Counted from the first letter of the stretch, positions 4,726 to 26,929 are shown. The stretch: 64,000 bases of DNA from a virus (IMGVR_UViG_3300028833_000067:64001-128000); one strand, 5' to 3'. A program made the numbers and translations. The notes: generated from the letters alone by a model not told the origin.

Positions 4726-4937
4726 GGTTTTACCAGATATGACAAATGTAACAGATTCGTAACAATTGTAACAATTGCGTCACAAACCCTGGAAGCGTTG
4801 ATTTATAAGGCTTCCAGGGTTTTTTGGATGTATAACATCCAAGTGTTAGCCGTGACTAACTCAGCCGTTTTATGGTATAATCTGGTCAGGAGGTGGGGGA
4901 AATGTTACGAAAGTGTTACAAATGCATTGGAAGGTGG

Positions 4938-5123
4938 GATACCTCAGCAGGCGAGGTACCTCAGCAGATGAGATACCTCAGTAGGCGAGGGCGCGCTCGC
5001 GCCTATACGGATGCGCGCCCTGCCCCGGGTATATATAGGCGCCGGCGAGCTGCAAGCTGGGAGCTGCAAGCTGGGAGCTGCAAGCTGCGAGCTGGGAACT
5101 GCGAGCTGGAAGATGTAAGCTGG
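4938..5123 (+). repeat. Short tandem repeats: TACCTCAG(C/T)AG x3 and 14-bp GAGCTGCAAGCTG(G/C) x3 plus degenerate copies
   Basis: Read directly in the leader of the first cassette. Confidence 0.85.
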
Positions 5124-5138
5124 AAAGGAGCTAAAACA

Positions 5139-5324
5139 ATGCTAATAATGGGAACTGGGTTTGTGCTGGGCGGGTTGGTAGCTGGAAGCTTCGCCCCACT
5201 CAAAATGGTCGCTGTGTGCGAGTTAATCGGATGGGCGTTAATGGGTGTGGCCGGACTAAGAGCCGAACAGAAAGAGCGCAAGGCCGCACAAAAATTAGCA
5301 ATGTATCCAACCTATAAATATTGA
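5139..5324 (+). CDS. 61-aa membrane protein (two hydrophobic segments)
   Basis: AAGGAG RBS, MLIMGTGF start, hairpin after TGA. Confidence 0.7.
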   Translation: MLIMGTGFVLGGLVAGSFAPLKMVAVCELIGWALMGVAGLRAEQKERKAAQKLAMYPTYKY

Positions 5325-5454
5325 GCGCTTCGGCGCTCTTGTACTTTTGGATGTATCACATCCAAAAGAAATAGTTGACAAGCATATTTATAAGTGTTAT
5401 ACTTGTATCATCAAAAGGGAAGGAAAACCTACCAAACCGGAAAGGATTGAAACC

Positions 5455-5742
5455 ATGAAAAAGACCATCGTAATCATCACCGCCACCATGCTCCTGCTCT
5501 CCCTTGTTAGTGCCGCAAGTGCGGAGCTTTATCCCACCACTGCTATGGTTTGCCGGGTGGATCGGGAAAGTGATTTAGTGTACTGCAAAGAATGTAATGG
5601 TAACATCTGGGCGTTTTTCGGGGTTGAAGATTGGGAAGAGGGAGACTTAGTCTCAATGATCATGGATGACAACGACACTGAATTGATCTATGATGACATG
5701 ATCTTACAAGTGAGATACGGTGGATATGTTGAGGGGTTTTAA
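5455..5742 (+). CDS. Secreted or membrane-anchored hypothetical protein
   Basis: Signal-peptide-like MKKTIVIITATMLLLSLVSAASA. Own promoter (TTGACA at 5375). Confidence 0.75.
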   Translation: MKKTIVIITATMLLLSLVSAASAELYPTTAMVCRVDRESDLVYCKECNGNIWAFFGVEDWEEGDLVSMIMDDNDTELIYDDMILQVRYGGYVEGF

Positions 5743-5877
5743 CCCCTCTTTTTTTTGTTATGGGGCTTTGGATGTAATACATCTAAAACATTCGTTTGAC
5801 AAATATATATATTTATTGTATACTTGTATCATCAAAGAGGGAAGGAAAACCCACCAAACCAGAGAGGAAGGAAGAGC

Positions 5878-7668
5878 ATGAAAACGGTTGAGATGATGAA
5901 GTGGAACAAAGGTTACTACGTGACCATGCGGCAGGGATGTAATGTCCAGCGCGAATGGGTCAAGACAAAGAAGGCCGCCGAAATTCTCATGAAAAAGTGG
6001 CAAAAAGGGGAATAATCCCCTTCTTCCCCTTTTAGATGTATTACATCTAAAACCTTGTGTTGACAATTGAATATTTCTATAGTATACTTATGCCATCAAA
6101 TGAAGGAGGTTACTACCATGAAGTATTTACTGATGAGAGAATATGAAACCATGAAAGTTTATGAACTTGACAACGTGATTTATAAGAAGATTGAATACAA
6201 ACTTGTTAAACTTACAGGTAGCGAACTGATAGCAAAAAAACTGATGCTCAAGTTTGGCTCTCTCACTGTTCAACAGCTTAGTTGCAATTCTCAAATCAAT
6301 ATTTTCGACTGCTTTGAGATTCTCGGATAAACCGAGAATCTTTTTATTTGTGAATTTAGATGTATTACATCCAAAATATGGGATTGACCTTTTACAAATA
6401 ATGAGTATAATTATAATTGTTCCAAGGGGAACAGAAAGGAAGGAAAAGAACATGTATTACTGGATGCATAAGGAATACGGGCACATCGTACCGGAAAACA
6501 AGCTTTGGGAAGATGCAGAAGAATTGGGCTATGATGACATTACCGACCCCTGTTCTGTTGAATACGGCAATTTCAATTTGTATTATGAGAAGACAAATAT
6601 GGTGGTCAACTAACCACCATATTTTTATATAAATACTTTTAGATGTAATACATCTAATTTTTGCTCTTGAACATTTTCCATGACAATGTTATAATAGGGT
6701 ATCAAATGAAGGAGGGATTATCCAATGTCTAACTATGCCGAAACTTTCGCCAAGGAACTCGAAAAGAATCAGCGCATCCGCGAACTCGCCGAAAAGAACG
6801 ATTCTCCCGAGGGCCTCACTGATGCCGAACTCGATGAATTCGTCCGTTTGATTGACCGCATTGCATACAATTTCGGGAGATATTAATCTCCCTATTTTTA
6901 TTACATATTTTAGATGTAATACATCCAACTTTGCTCTTGACTTTTCATGATTTTATATGTATAATTGGGTTGTACCCAAGGAACCCAAACAAAAGAAAGT
7001 GAGGAACGAAAACATGAAGACCACAGTAAGAGCCCACGTAATTATCCCGGATTGCTATCTGACTATTCAGCGGTTATATGATGATGGGAAATTCTTCCGT
7101 CTTGAGGAAGAAGTCAAAACGGGAGAAGACGCCGCCAAATTTATTGAAAGATTGCTTGCTCAGGGTGGACGTTTACTCGATGCTCACGAATTTGTTGACG
7201 ATGATGATTTCAAGACAAAACTTTCTGCAACTTTTGAGTATATCTCCAACTAAGGCCCACGGGCCTTTCTTGTTTTAGATGTATTACATCCAAATTCTCC
7301 TATTGCAATTACAGCATATCCATGCTATAATAAGGCATCAAATGAAGGAGGCGCTGACCATGATCAATATTCGGACAATTCGGAAACTGCAGGAAAATGA
7401 CGGGCTTACTCTGAAGGCCGGGAAAATCATCACTTACAAAACCGGGTGGCAGGTTGCCGACTATGGTTATGAGCTGGCAACAGCTGAGGAAGCAATCGCT
7501 TGTGTTCGCAAGCTGGGCGGCAACTGCGGCATTTGGTATGCCGGCGGCATCTACTATATTGATCATTCTTTCCGTATCAGCACCAAACGGGAAGCATTGG
7601 AAATCGGCCGCAAGTTTTCTCAAATTTCAATTTTCGGATGGAAGACACAGAAACTTGCATATTGCTAA
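5878..7668 (+). CDS. Six single-gene cassettes, hypothetical: 5878-6015, 6118-6330, 6452-6613, 6725-6886, 7014-7253, 7360-7668
   Basis: Each has the palindrome, a -35/-10 promoter, an RBS, a TAA stop and a 3' hairpin. Confidence 0.75.
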
Positions 7669-24806: not shown

Positions 24807-24892
24807 CAACTACTTGACATTACACCACAAACGTGGTATAATGAATACGAAACAGGGGAAGGAAAACCCCACAAACCAGAAAGGCATTTATT

Positions 24893-25219
24893 ATGAAGAA
24901 AACTACTCTTGAAACCATCCGCACCGCTCTGACTAACCTTGGTTACACCGATGAAACTGTTCTTGCTGAACTGGACACCGAACTGAGCAAGGGCGCCGCT
25001 GAGAAGACTGCTCGCGCCGCCGAGTATGAGTCCATCCATGATCTGATTATGGAAACTCTGTCCGATACCCCTATTACTTGCGGTGAACTGTGGGAGTCCA
25101 TCGAGGGTAGTGTGCCCGAAGGTATCACCAAGGGTAAGGTACAGTACGCTCTGACCCATCTGTGGCAGGATGAGATCGTCAAGATCACCGGCAAGCCTAA
25201 CACTTACCGTAGGGCGTAA
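24893..25219 (+). CDS. 108-aa winged-HTH protein
   Basis: PITCGELWESIEG..ITKGKVQYALTHLW..KPNTY. Confidence 0.75.
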   Translation: MKKTTLETIRTALTNLGYTDETVLAELDTELSKGAAEKTARAAEYESIHDLIMETLSDTPITCGELWESIEGSVPEGITKGKVQYALTHLWQDEIVKITGKPNTYRRA

Positions 25220-25423
25220 GGTACAAAGGTTTCAAGGGGCTTATCCTTAAAACCCCTTTCCAGATAGCGGTCTAAATTGAATGTGTCACGACCCAAAAAA
25301 CATGGAACATTCATCCGAGCCGTAGGATAGACAATTCGGCACATTCCTGCCTCCAATAAAGAGGCAGGCTTTTTTATATAAATAAAATTGGATGTTAGAC
25401 ATCCAATAAATAAATCCTTCGGA

Positions 25424-26112
25424 CTATATCCGAAGGATTCTTTTTATATTATCACAGAAAGTATCCCACCATGTCTTTTCATATTTATAAAAAGTATCAA
25501 CAAAAATGCGATAAATCGGATAAGTAATATCCGGATGTTTAGGATTAAATTTAATAAGCCAAAGTTCTTGCTCTCGTTTATCATTAGAATACGTCCAAGC
25601 CATAGGATGCCATTCTGTTTTCCCTAATTCATGCACAGAATTAAGAATAGTTTTATCTGATAAGTTCCCATTATATTCTATGCCGCCATAAATAATTTCA
25701 CCAGAACCAATTTTAGAGTATATAAGGCGTTTTACTTTAATTACTTTCACGTTCCCAACACCTGCCTATATGCTATTTCCCAAGCCATATGTAATGCATC
25801 ATGACTTGTCAATTGCTGAGTTTTTCCTGTATAATGCACCAGAAGAGCATTATTTATTTGCTTATATTGTCTTAAATCATCATCGTATGCGGCAACAAGA
25901 TTCAGAATACGTTTCTGATAAGTTTCAATCTCTTGAAGTTCTATATTCTTATCCGACCCATCAGGGAGCATTTCTGTGCTTCCCTTGCATACAATAATCT
26001 TATGGCAGTAAGTTATCATTCTTTGCCTATGCTTGCACAAATTATCTAACAGCCCTTTCATATGGATATCTTCACCGCTCCAAGTATCAGTCTCTTTTTT
26101 CCTTCCAAACAT
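25424..26112 (-). CDS. Two hypothetical proteins (25747-26112, 25424-25750) in an inverted cassette
   Basis: Minus-strand TTGACT 9 bp from the palindrome at 26179. Terminator at about 25411-25445. Confidence 0.75.
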
Positions 26113-26213
26113 ATCTTCATCTCCTTTCCGATTACATACATATTATATCAAAATTAAATAAATAGTCAATAAATTTATTTAGATGTATTACATCCAATTC
26201 CTAAAAGGAGGGA

Positions 26214-26822
26214 TTAGTCCCTACCTTCCGCAATTGCACGAAACATTTCTTTATTGGCAAAAGTATCACACAGTTCATAATAGGTCTCTTCATCAACATA
26301 AAACCATTCTTCTGTATTCTGTGCCACAGCATAGGCATGTTCTGCAATATACTCATGACAGCGTTCTTCAGAATATCTATCTGATTCTTCTGCAGTTAAA
26401 TAAATATTATTATGATAAATCATAGGATTATGACGCACATAGGTCTTAATACGCGCACCAATATCATCAGCCATCCCGACCTTTACACAATAATATTTAT
26501 GATCATCCGGAGTGATGCCAATCATACCAACAAAATACAAGCCTTGCTTATGCGTATCACAATCTACATATGGTATTTTTAATTCGCCCAAACCATAAAC
26601 CGTTTTCTTATAGCCGCCATTATAATGAACACCATTAGCATCATAAGTGTAATATTTTTCTAATGCTCTGCGACAGTTACTATCAAGTGGACGACGAAAA
26701 TCTTGAAAAATTGCATCTAATGCAGTTTGAGAAAGTCCCTCTTCATCTGAAAAGCAATCACACATTTCTTTCCAATGATAGGTATTAATGCGTTCAGCAA
26801 TTTTTTCTTCATAAACAGACAT
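26214..26822 (-). CDS. GIY-YIG / T5orf172-like domain protein
   Basis: GLYFVG..VKVGMADDIGARIKTY..EERCHEYI..EEWF. Confidence 0.7.
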   Translation of the reverse strand: MSVYEEKIAERINTYHWKEMCDCFSDEEGLSQTALDAIFQDFRRPLDSNCRRALEKYYTYDANGVHYNGGYKKTVYGLGELKIPYVDCDTHKQGLYFVGMIGITPDDHKYYCVKVGMADDIGARIKTYVRHNPMIYHNNIYLTAEESDRYSEERCHEYIAEHAYAVAQNTEEWFYVDEETYYELCDTFANKEMFRAIAEGRD

Positions 26823-26929
26823 AATAAAATTCCTTTCTGGTTTATCAGTGTTTTCCTTCACTTCGTAGATAGAGTATAGCATAAAAAAGAATAAATGTCA
26901 AATCAAATTTTTGGATGTATAACATCCAA

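Follow-up and report, generated by a model that had tools for sequence, protein, structure and literature searches.

Why should a phage repeat one short palindrome about 40 times within a single stretch of its genome? The question is raised by a window of 64,000 nt from an uncultured gut or rumen phage of ~177 kb, whose genome is 98% complete. A motif scan of this window for TTRGATGT-N3-ACATCYAA, a 19-bp dyad built of two 8-bp half-sites (TTRGATGT) around an A/T-rich 3-bp spacer, returned 38 exact matches, where shuffled sequences gave an expectation of 0, and two copies with one mismatch (at 11721 and 18387, with a promoter present at both). All 40 copies lie within window positions 4824-26929 and none elsewhere in the 176,887-bp genome, which bears out the ~40 copies limited to this block that the first-pass annotation had reported. 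The same arrays, with 4-40 copies each, are present in at least 34 contigs of related uncultured phages, and in the complete relatives the copies likewise occupy a single block. We found no published description of the element. At the left boundary of the block (4611..4725), eight DnaA-box-like 9-mers are clustered, and at the right boundary (26929..27746) a different 16-bp palindrome, TGTCAAGTAYTTGACA, is present in four copies.

The genes of the array are mostly ORFans, and each unit comes with a promoter and a terminator of its own (Table 1). Host takeover, suggested for these genes at the outset, is a putative role. Sigma-A-type hexamers (TTG, 16/18 nt, TATAAT-like), and hence a host-type early promoter per module, follow 37 of the 40 copies, and a hairpin with a T-run, a putative terminator stem-loop, stands upstream of almost every palindrome; terminator-like hairpins in the block number 53 versus 16.4 expected. 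The unit plan proposed earlier was right in its promoter and terminal hairpin, but the leader hairpin that it assigned to each unit (GTTCC..GGAAC, directly after the -10) is confined to a subset, the remaining units having one of two other conserved leaders. Beside the last palindrome, a + strand TTGACA is located at 26939.

Table 1. Palindromes and promoters of the array, in window coordinates.
Feature	Position	Strand	Remarks
Early-gene cassette array, 40 palindromes, ~40 promoter-gene-terminator units	4824..26929	+	standard code readable
Palindrome 1	4824..4842	+	weak -35 GTGACT at 4852, extended -10
Palindrome	5347..5365	+	-35 TTGACA at 5375
Palindrome	5768..5786	+	-35 at 5796
Palindrome	6032..6050	+	-35 at 6060
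Palindrome	6356..6374	+	-35 TTGACC at 6385, gap 10 bp
Palindrome	6639..6657	+	-35 at 6667
Palindrome	6910..6928	+	-35 at 6937, gap 8
Palindrome	7275..7293	+	-35 TTGCAA at 7303
Palindrome	7709..7727	+	-35 TTGCAC at 7737
Palindrome	7992..8010	+	-35 TTGTGC at 8020; no clear ORF in unit
Palindrome	8363..8381	+	-35 TTGCTT at 8391; no clear ORF in unit
Palindrome	8733..8751	+	-35 at 8760, gap 8
Palindrome	9115..9133	+	-35 at 9143
Palindrome	9468..9486	+	-35 at 9496
Palindrome	9835..9853	+	-35 at 9863
Palindrome	10245..10263	+	-35 at 10273
Palindrome	10656..10674	+	-35 at 10684
Palindrome	11041..11059	+	-35 TTGACT at 11071, gap 11 bp
Palindrome	11426..11444	+	-35 at 11454
Palindrome, one mismatch (TTTGATGT)	11721..11739	+	-35 at 11749
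Palindrome	12287..12305	+	-35 at 12315
Palindrome	12708..12726	+	-35 TTGATT at 12736
Palindrome	13149..13167	+	-35 at 13177
Palindrome	13851..13869	+	-35 at 13879
Palindrome	14863..14881	+	-35 at 14891
Palindrome	15540..15558	+	-35 at 15568; short leader RNA before palindrome-free promoter 15732
Palindrome-free perfect-consensus promoter, upstream A-tract	15732..15760	+	drives 162-aa winged-helix-like gene 15839-16327
Palindrome	16390..16408	+	-35 at 16418
Palindrome	16955..16973	+	-35 at 16983; no clear ORF in unit
Palindrome	17259..17277	+	-35 TTGCAA at 17287; upstream of AAA_5 ATPase gene, drives it
Palindrome, one mismatch	18387..18405	+	-35 at 18415; drives 547-aa gene
Palindrome	20100..20118	+	-35 at 20127, gap 8; drives DEDD-type exonuclease-like gene 20211-20969
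Palindrome	21011..21029	+	-35 at 21039; leader RNA before palindrome-free promoter 21219
Palindrome-free perfect promoter	21219..21247	+	drives winged-helix gene 21303-21623 (family A1)
Palindrome	21668..21686	+	gap 21 to -35 at 21708; second dyad (TTGTATCCAAAATACA) within gap
Palindrome	22337..22355	+	-35 TTGCTT at 22365
Palindrome	22894..22912	+	-35 at 22922
Palindrome	23781..23799	+	-35 at 23809
Palindrome	24485..24503	+	-35 at 24513; palindrome-free promoters 24645 and 24814 downstream
Palindrome-free perfect promoter, second upstream of family A1 gene 24893-25219	24645	+	
Palindrome-free perfect promoter	24814..24842	+	drives winged-helix gene 24893-25219 (family A1)
Orphan palindrome	25388..25406		promoterless, two terminator hairpins flanking
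Palindrome, inverted unit	26179..26197	-	-35 TTGACT 26169-26164; drives gene 25747-26112
Last palindrome	26911..26929	-	-35 TTGACA 26901-26896; drives T5orf172-domain gene 26214-26882

The distance between palindrome and promoter is nearly constant. In 36 of the 40 copies the TTG of the -35 lies 8-9 bp from the palindrome edge and a TATAAT-like -10 follows 16-18 nt further; 34 of these copies are on the + strand, and the two inverted units (26179 and 26911) keep the same gap on the - strand, as initially described. Non-standard copies are those at 6356 (10 bp to the -35), 11041 (11 bp), 21668 (21 bp) and 25388, the last being promoterless between its two terminator hairpins, as had also been noticed. 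Among 734 copies from ~35 phage contigs, many of these copies being paralogues, so that the counts are not independent events, the gap was 8-10 bp in 451 (9 bp, n = 375; 8 bp, n = 49; 10 bp, n = 27), and the less common gaps group at 17-20, 28-32 and 39-45 bp. With each contig/gap pair entered once, a Rayleigh test on the gaps gave a best period of 10.5-11.5 bp (p ~1e-6), and the phase at a period of 10.5 bp was 8.9, in agreement with the standard gap, as is characteristic of a helical-face-dependent site upstream of the -35. With transcription starts inferred from the -10 position, the palindrome is centred ~54-55 bp upstream of the start, where it shares a helical face with the -35 box and falls into the region in which UP elements dock the alpha C-terminal domain of the polymerase. 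Class I activator (CRP) sites, UP elements and phi29 p4 sites are dyads or A/T-rich sequences upstream of the -35 that function only on the correct helical face, via this domain. The palindrome resembles CRP sites in its location and face dependence, but its centres, near -54/-55 and more rarely near -65, -75 and -86, differ from those of CRP (-61.5, -72.5 and so on).

The palindrome is restricted to one class of promoters, being absent from 55 other strong sigma-A promoters of the genome and from four perfect-consensus promoters within the block. A perfect 12/12 consensus is found in 14% of the palindrome-linked promoters versus 38-39% of the palindrome-free ones, whether from these arrays or from UP-type lineages, and the ratio of TTGACA to TTGACT is ~1:1 versus 3.6:1. 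Palindrome-linked promoters thus have the weaker core hexamers, which indirectly favours a positive, UP-element-like role of the palindrome. The element is also lineage-specific and evolved in concert. Closest relatives possess the variant half-site TTAGGTGT and 2-4-bp spacers (spacer variation was seen in G011), and in other sister lineages the place of the palindrome is taken by TTAAC repeats or by UP-like sequence made of A/T tracts. The core genes include gyrase, Pol III alpha, NrdD and a 3220-aa tape-measure-like ORF, and the nearest described phage is phAss-1.

From the directly observed copies, spacing, phasing, class restriction, lineage variation and breakpoint enrichment (see below), we infer protein binding, polymerase contact and the sign of regulation, and posit, with a probability of roughly 0.6, that the palindrome is an operator situated ahead of early promoters, whose sequence is recognised by a dimeric DNA-binding protein that acts on polymerase there. 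Bound near -54, this protein would contact RNA polymerase at ~40 sigma-A-type early promoters and mark them as one co-regulated class. It would most likely serve as a class-I-type activator or UP-element substitute, and it may later change over to repression like phi29 p4, which activates or represses according to core promoter strength. The operator had been suggested at the outset, together with its placement in the alpha-CTD/UP zone; as far as sequence can tell, the idea stands up to half-site variation, helical phasing, promoter-class restriction and, in sister lineages, the presence of UP-like A/T tracts in place of the palindrome.

The half-sites themselves speak on whether the palindrome is read as double-stranded DNA. 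Phage N4 early promoters are hairpins, and the 8-bp stem and 3-nt loop of the palindrome, which stands immediately downstream of each terminator, resemble them; the element could accordingly be an N4-type cruciform or single-strand promoter, or an RNA insulator or processing stem-loop of read-through transcripts. However, the arms do not co-vary: positions 3 (A/G) and 17 (C/T) combine as 13/13/6/6 in the window copies (odds ratio 1.0), with an A-C or G-T pair in 19 of 38, as expected under independence, and one relative mixes a GATGT arm with an ACACC arm in 11 of 33 copies. Base pairing is thus not under selection, and the half-sites seem to act like separate protein contacts. Since the terminator distance is moreover variable whereas the -35 distance is fixed and helically phased, the spacer varies between 2 and 4 bp in length in the closest relative, and Rfam holds no match to the palindrome, we regard a hairpin as the least credible of the explanations considered. 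A shut-off operator, at which an early or middle phage repressor would bind all copies and silence the early units together, is unlikely but deserves more weight. It could work through one master repressor bound at every repeat of the element or through polymerase retention, as phi29 p4 does at A2c; such a p4-like mechanism also predicts helical phasing, the palindrome is limited to one temporal-looking promoter class, and the promoters are near consensus and probably fire unaided. A precedent for one repeated operator at many promoters of a large phage is SPBRE of the temperate Bacillus phage SPbeta, the element of the master repressor MrpR, whose ~10 copies of a 15-bp motif function in lysogeny maintenance and were predicted in silico long before the binding protein was known (PMC10516654). 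The palindrome is likewise a single conserved short element recurring at many promoters, but its 40 copies are phase-locked at ~-54 in a phage without integrase, and no MrpR-like reader with a tyrosine-recombinase fold is detectable by PF00589 in the genome. Shut-off is further opposed by a site near -54 that is clear of the -35 and -10, where simple repressors act, by the weaker core hexamers, and by the fact that sister lineages have positive elements, the UP-like A/T tracts, where the palindrome would stand.

A putative reader of the operator is most likely phage-encoded, and it was not found among the array proteins across the palindrome-bearing genomes examined. Only two array proteins are common to all of these genomes, an ORFan of 115 aa and a DEDD-type exonuclease-like protein, and both are present in palindrome-less lineages too. 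Winged-helix family A1 shows no co-occurrence with the palindrome across relatives, and the candidate HTH proteins that had been put forward as binders fell away for the same reason. A site-specific recombinase was discarded as well, as the 98%-complete genome has 0 matches to the serine recombinase family (PF00239) and 0 to the tyrosine recombinase family (PF00589), of which a very degenerate homologue may escape detection. The palindrome might also be the operator of a borrowed host transcription factor, the host perhaps belonging to Clostridia or Oscillospirales. Such a factor would suit the missing conserved phage reader and a half-site that is unchanged between phages with core proteins only 25-55% identical, a constancy that needs a very conserved reader of the kind that sequence searches should detect. 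Yet scanning 185,579 species genomes (one genome per species) for the exact pattern revealed no host regulon: ~110 scattered single matches, at about chance level, were without promoter context, small phage fragments binned in MAGs being the exception, and the Clostridia matches had neither common gene context nor promoter arrangement. As the scan recovered a conserved orthologous locus in Neobacillus, it was able to detect conserved sites. A host factor was rejected as reader on these grounds and is improbable; with another half-site or none in close relatives, a phage-encoded reader is the easier explanation.

The palindrome also marks where relatives differ. Of 158 homology-block ends between related phages, 56 lie ≤20 bp from the centre of a palindrome, where 13.8 would be expected, the pile-up being sharpest at the terminator-side edge, while the remaining ends are scattered through promoter and leader, as general homologous recombination predicts. 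This pattern supports the palindrome as a probable seam where related phages swap units, and it agrees with the gain or loss of cassettes at the repeated boundary that was envisaged in the first-pass annotation. The 'integron-style' gene bank proposed with it finds no support. Integron cassettes are promoterless and are read from one common promoter, and attC is long and imperfect. Like integrons, the array is made of small gene units, varies in content and has an element that recurs at the boundaries; homology blocks stop at the palindrome, and the promoterless orphan copy resembles a scar. A dedicated site of integron-like capture, with insertion and excision of cassettes by a site-specific recombinase, is nevertheless very improbable: neither beside the array nor genome-wide is there an integrase match (PF00589, PF00239), each unit has a promoter and terminator, the near-perfect 19-bp dyad is short and tied to the promoter, -35 phasing serves nothing in recombination, and breakpoints extend into similar promoter and leader sequence.

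The exchange pattern corresponds to that of repeated promoter/terminator modules recombining with one another, as happens in the promoter-early stem-loop (PeSL) cassettes of the T4-type phages RB49 and phi1, which characteristically form excised mini-circles (Arbiol et al. 2010, PMC2839356). In both systems small early genes, mostly ORFans, are densely arrayed, each flanked by a repeated module of strong host-type promoter and terminator stem-loop, and in both the joints of insertions, deletions and replacements between relatives fall within the modules. PeSL cassettes, however, include no separate dyad of invariant sequence whose distance to the -35 downstream of it is fixed and helically phased, their stem-loop being the G/C-rich terminator itself in variable position. 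The phages are also unrelated: the core genes do not place the present phage, which is TAG-recoded and encodes, besides a polymerase of the Pol III alpha type, a tape-measure-like protein of very great length, among the T4-type myoviruses. In the phages studied here, palindrome, promoter, leader, gene and terminator would be exchanged together as one unit, and the conserved palindrome-promoter-leader stretch would act as a homology patch for the exchange, gain and loss of units, as a by-product of its operator role.

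The early region of this phage is an array of units that carry the 19-bp palindrome TTRGATGT-N3-ACATCYAA. The window holds 38 exact copies, compared with 0 expected from shuffled sequences, and two copies with one mismatch raise the total to 40, all confined to a single block. The window covers bases 64001-128000 of a virus record of 176,887 bp (98% complete according to CheckV), and the full-genome motif scan that the first-pass annotation had proposed yielded no further exact copy in the rest of the record. In the recurring order, a G/C-rich hairpin with a T-run is followed by a few variable bases, the palindrome, a -35 box, 16-18 nt and a TATAAT-like -10 box that often has an extended TG. 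A leader and a Shine-Dalgarno site then precede one or a few small ORFs, after which the next hairpin follows; terminator-like sites are correspondingly enriched in the block (53 vs 16.4 expected). From the palindrome edge to the -35 box (TTG...) the distance is 8-9 bp in 34 plus-strand copies. Copy-by-copy reading thus bore out the earlier description of about 40 palindrome-tagged units with fixed spacing, two inverted units and one orphan copy, but the leader hairpin that it ascribed to every unit is not general, several leader classes being present. Several palindrome-promoter units lack a convincing ORF and are candidates for small RNAs; two of them are short leaders that continue into another perfect promoter, without palindrome, ahead of winged-helix genes.

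Coordinates of the features in and around the array (window positions)
Feature	Position	Strand	Remark
Eight DnaA-box-like 9-mers	4611-4725	three -, then five +	within 115 bp; left edge of block
Palindrome array (block)	4824-26929
Palindrome copy	6356		-35 box at 10 bp
Palindrome copy	11041		-35 box at 11 bp
Palindrome copies, one mismatch	11721, 18387
Palindrome copy	21668		gap to -35 box 21 bp
Palindrome copy	25388		promoterless; flanked by two terminator hairpins
Inverted units	26179, 26911	-	spacing to -35 box as in + copies
Units without convincing ORF	7992-8733, 16955-17259, 21039-21218, 24513-24644
Winged-helix-like genes, family A1	21303-21623, 24893-25219
Winged-helix-like gene, third	15839-16327
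AAA_5 ATPase and 547-aa partner	17375-20058
TTGTATACA-type dyad	21687-21707		in palindrome/-35 gap
115-aa ORFan gene	21781-22128
TTGTATACA-type dyad, right boundary region	26955-26990, 27140-27165
Different 16-bp palindrome TGTCAAGTAYTTGACA	26929-27746		four copies; right edge of block
Small gene downstream of TGTCAAGTAYTTGACA	28063-28278
Late genes	27000-64000		TAG-recoded
3220-aa ORF	45760-55422		21 in-frame TAGs

Reading through TAG lifts the open-frame coverage of the genome from 0.42 to 0.79, and outside the block there are long genes with many in-frame TAGs, including the 3220-aa ORF. The plus-strand genes of the block are intact under the standard code, and the block is therefore a standard-code early region that depends on the host polymerase. 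ARAGORN predicted 13 tRNAs at 142-154 kb of the genome, none of them with a CTA anticodon despite the TAG-recoded late genes. The phage has genes for gyrase, Pol III alpha, NrdD, a RecJ-like protein and a DnaB-like helicase. Of the described phages, the closest is phAss-1, a TAG-recoded gut phage (39% GyrB identity), in which we found no copy of the palindrome. The authors of phAss-1 predicted a Clostridia host and interpreted its giant ORF as a tape measure protein; promoters and repeats go unmentioned in their paper (PMC10607447). At the left edge of the block, the DnaA-box-like cluster lies immediately upstream of the first palindrome, where gene orientation flips, and may represent an origin or, alternatively, a sink for DnaA. 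At the right edge, TGTCAAGTAYTTGACA consists of two back-to-back -35 hexamers, and its first copy abuts the last 19-bp palindrome; the four copies probably form a second operator system that precedes a small gene and the helicase gene. Terminal repeats in relatives measure just 48 and 127 bp and are probably assembly overlaps.

The palindrome is coupled to the promoter that follows it. For 734 copies among the matches listed, the gap to the best promoter was 9 bp in 375, 8 bp in 49 and 10 bp in 27, and the other gaps form clusters at 17-20, 28-32 and 39-45 bp with almost nothing between them. In a Rayleigh test restricted to gaps from 12 to 50 bp, the best periods were 10.5-11.5 bp (p ~1e-6, each contig/gap pair counted once), and the phase at a 10.5-bp period, 8.9, is that of the standard gap. 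The distance to the preceding terminator is variable. A phased gap on one side and a loose one on the other argue that the site has to occupy one helix face relative to the -35 box, and in the usual geometry its center would lie near -54/-55 of the predicted start sites. Outside the block the genome has a further 55 strong promoters of sigma-A type, none with a palindrome, and four perfect TTGACA-17-TATAAT promoters within the block are likewise without it, preceded instead by A-tracts. Among promoters scoring at least 10/12, the perfect consensus occurs in 14% of the palindrome-linked ones, versus 38% of the palindrome-free ones of the same arrays and 39% of those in palindrome-less lineages. 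Similarly, TTGACA and TTGACT are equally frequent as -35 boxes of linked promoters, compared with 3.6:1 in palindrome-free ones. At the 115-aa gene, the 20-21 bp that separate palindrome and -35 box are taken up by a third dyad, of the TTGTATACA type. The same layout recurs in several relatives. This dyad, which reappears in the region of the right boundary, may serve the conserved 115-aa ORFan for autoregulation.

An exact-pattern scan of IMG/VR gave at least 116 stretches, which were stitched to contigs; at least 34 contigs bear arrays of 4-40 copies, several of them being genomes 116-190 kb long. In four genomes that are complete or nearly so, two of them not TAG-recoded, every copy sits in a single 7-22 kb block adjoining the structural module. 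Replication and virion genes common to these genomes share only 25-55% amino-acid identity, and retention of the element over such distances marks it as old and strongly conserved. For comparison among lineages, loci were retrieved via the structural gene that adjoins the array. The closest relatives (75-78% identity in this gene) have exclusively TTAGGTGT half-sites, while five others are palindrome-free, their early promoters carrying long UP-element-type A/T tracts at the same position. G016, a relative of 165 kb (96% complete), has no palindrome copy, and TTAAC repeats take its position. The TTAAC-N6-TTAAC repeat, another lineage-specific upstream element, abuts the -35 box in G016 (locus L298) and in IMGVR 3300031994_000013 (loci L020-L029, L123); in the latter it stands between palindrome and promoter, with gaps of 17, 31 and 43 bp. 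Together, the TTAGGTGT, A/T-tract and TTAAC lineages indicate that the upstream element differs between close relatives, with all copies changing in concert.

The units themselves are exchanged. The order of the window's cassette bodies is largely kept in relatives, apart from many whole-unit gaps and a few swaps, such as that of units 5768 and 6032 in 3300028591_000108. The first-pass annotation had proposed looking in related phages for variable cassette content with breakpoints at the palindrome, and this is the pattern that emerged. In six array pairs of 80-94% identity, 56 of the 158 internal homology-block ends lie within 20 bp of a palindrome center, versus 13.8 expected (binomial p ~1e-20). 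When oriented by promoter, the ends accumulate at the palindrome edge that faces the terminator and immediately upstream of it, and are thinly spread through promoter and leader on the other side of the palindrome. What is exchanged is therefore a unit of palindrome plus promoter, leader, gene(s) and terminator, with joints in the stretch common to all units. Since the 19 bp of the palindrome are common to every pair of units, alignment itself accounts for part of the sharpness at its edge. An integron-like reading, in which the palindrome itself serves recombination, could draw on the same enrichment, but we found no tyrosine or serine recombinase in the genome, and direct tests disfavor it; the enrichment locates the joints and is no evidence of a dyad evolved for recombination. 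The likeness is rather to the PeSL modules of T4-type phages, in which strong early promoters and terminator stem-loops in hyperplastic regions are used as recombination joints (PMC2839356), since the array units also exchange with joints in a repeated promoter/terminator stretch.

Dyad symmetry would also fit a hairpin, a reading that direct tests likewise disfavor. In the window, positions 3 (A/G) and 17 (C/T) combine as G-C 13, A-C 13, G-T 6 and A-T 6, exactly as independence predicts (odds ratio 1.0). In relative 3300028888_000066, GATGT and GGTGT arms are mixed within one copy in 11 of 33 cases, and in G011, the closest complete relative, the spacer is 2, 3 or 4 bp. Such independent arms and variable spacers argue that pairing is not under selection. 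The central triplet is mainly A/T, and Rfam and tRNA searches returned nothing bearing on the palindrome. The arms instead behave as two half-sites in their own right, spaced by one turn of the helix, as is characteristic of a dimeric DNA-binding protein. That this protein could be a host factor was addressed with the exact pattern in one genome for each of 185,579 species. The 118 stretches obtained are nearly all single copies over unrelated phyla, no match shows the promoter arrangement, and those in Clostridia have no common gene context. The same scan picked up a conserved orthologous locus in Neobacillus and was therefore able to detect a real conserved site. At this locus about 20 Neobacillus/Bacillus genomes carry the exact dyad TTAGATGT-N3-ACATCTAA (L173, L177, L185, L187-L189, L192, L193, L202 and others), which may be a real operator there, unrelated to the phage. 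The few multi-copy matches are short MAG contigs labeled Acutalibacteraceae, Oscillospiraceae or Bacillota (L169, L200, L229, L231, L269); they look like binned phage fragments, and their labels are a weak hint of an Oscillospirales host. With no host regulon found in these species genomes, a host reader is unlikely, and this together with the lineage-specific variation of the element favors a reader that would be phage-encoded. As to the effect of binding, the position of the site, the weaker core hexamers and the A/T-tract replacement in sister lineages favor a positive, UP-element-like action. For a shut-off role, phi29 p4 offers a model. By analogy with p4 or with SPBRE/MrpR (PMC10516654), shut-off is a serious rival to positive action.

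Phage candidates for the reader were sought in the block and by phyletic profiling of all ORFs across nine relatives (positives G011, G001, G003 and G005; negatives G016 and G006-G010). Three small winged-helix-like genes of the block are driven by palindrome-free promoters. Two belong to family A1 (about 108 aa), confidently modeled as a winged helix preceded by a helical arm at the N-terminus (mean pLDDT 92.8) with Z-alpha, ArsR/SmtB and Fur-type domains as top structural matches. A1 is multi-copy, with 1-4 genes per array in most relatives, with or without palindrome. It was rejected as reader: all five palindrome-less lineages have 1-4 copies, three complete palindrome-bearing genomes lack it or have only remotely similar proteins, and its recognition helix is conserved whatever the half-site type, the family also occurring in GGTGT lineages. 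Profiling against these four positive and six negative genomes yielded no DNA-binding candidate. The array genes common to all positives, a DEDD-type exonuclease-like protein (N-terminal D-x-E motif and PHROG hit) and the 115-aa ORFan, occur in negatives too, and no Pfam domain was found in shared array ORFans. The AAA_5 ATPase (327 aa) and its 547-aa partner, conserved inside the early array in G011 and a 116-kb relative, were rejected; they are missing from G001 and G005, and by PHROG hits the pair looks CobS/CobT-like. With Pfam, neither this window nor the array of the 116-kb relative showed a restriction-enzyme-like domain. A 109-aa protein with a faint RelB-like match was also set aside, its distribution being uninformative.

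The best-supported reading is that the palindrome would be the phase-locked operator of a dimeric, probably phage-encoded protein, whose binding would group about 40 early promoters into a single class. In architecture the array belongs to a known type, combining repeated promoter/terminator cassettes with repeated phage operators. An invariant, helically phased dyad with lineage-specific variants is described neither in the literature, according to sequence and keyword searches, nor in the GenBank phage records searched. A broader scenario, which we regard as possible but on balance doubtful, is that a clade of uncultured Clostridia-type phages exchanged the generic UP element of early promoters for a private, lineage-specific activator site. 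About 40 operators and their putative reader would then co-evolve in concert (GATGT, GGTGT, 2-4-bp spacers, or reversion to A/T tracts), and the outcome would be standardized plug-in units, active only with their own phage's factor and swappable between co-infecting relatives without a recombinase.

To our knowledge, early transcription has hardly been studied in large uncultured phages of the gut and rumen. The palindrome offers a precise cis-element, of which each genome has about 40 copies locked in phase and the relatives together more than 700, and its natural variants in half-site, spacer and UP-like tract replacement are ready-made mutants. If the reader is found, it would be a new transcription factor of phages and would supply Firmicutes with an orthogonal pair of promoter and operator. 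With the breakpoint data, modular shuffling of the PeSL type, described for T4-type coliphages, extends to a phage clade unrelated to them, and the shuffling of units bears on how phages build up and turn over their accessory early-gene repertoires, counter-defense genes included.
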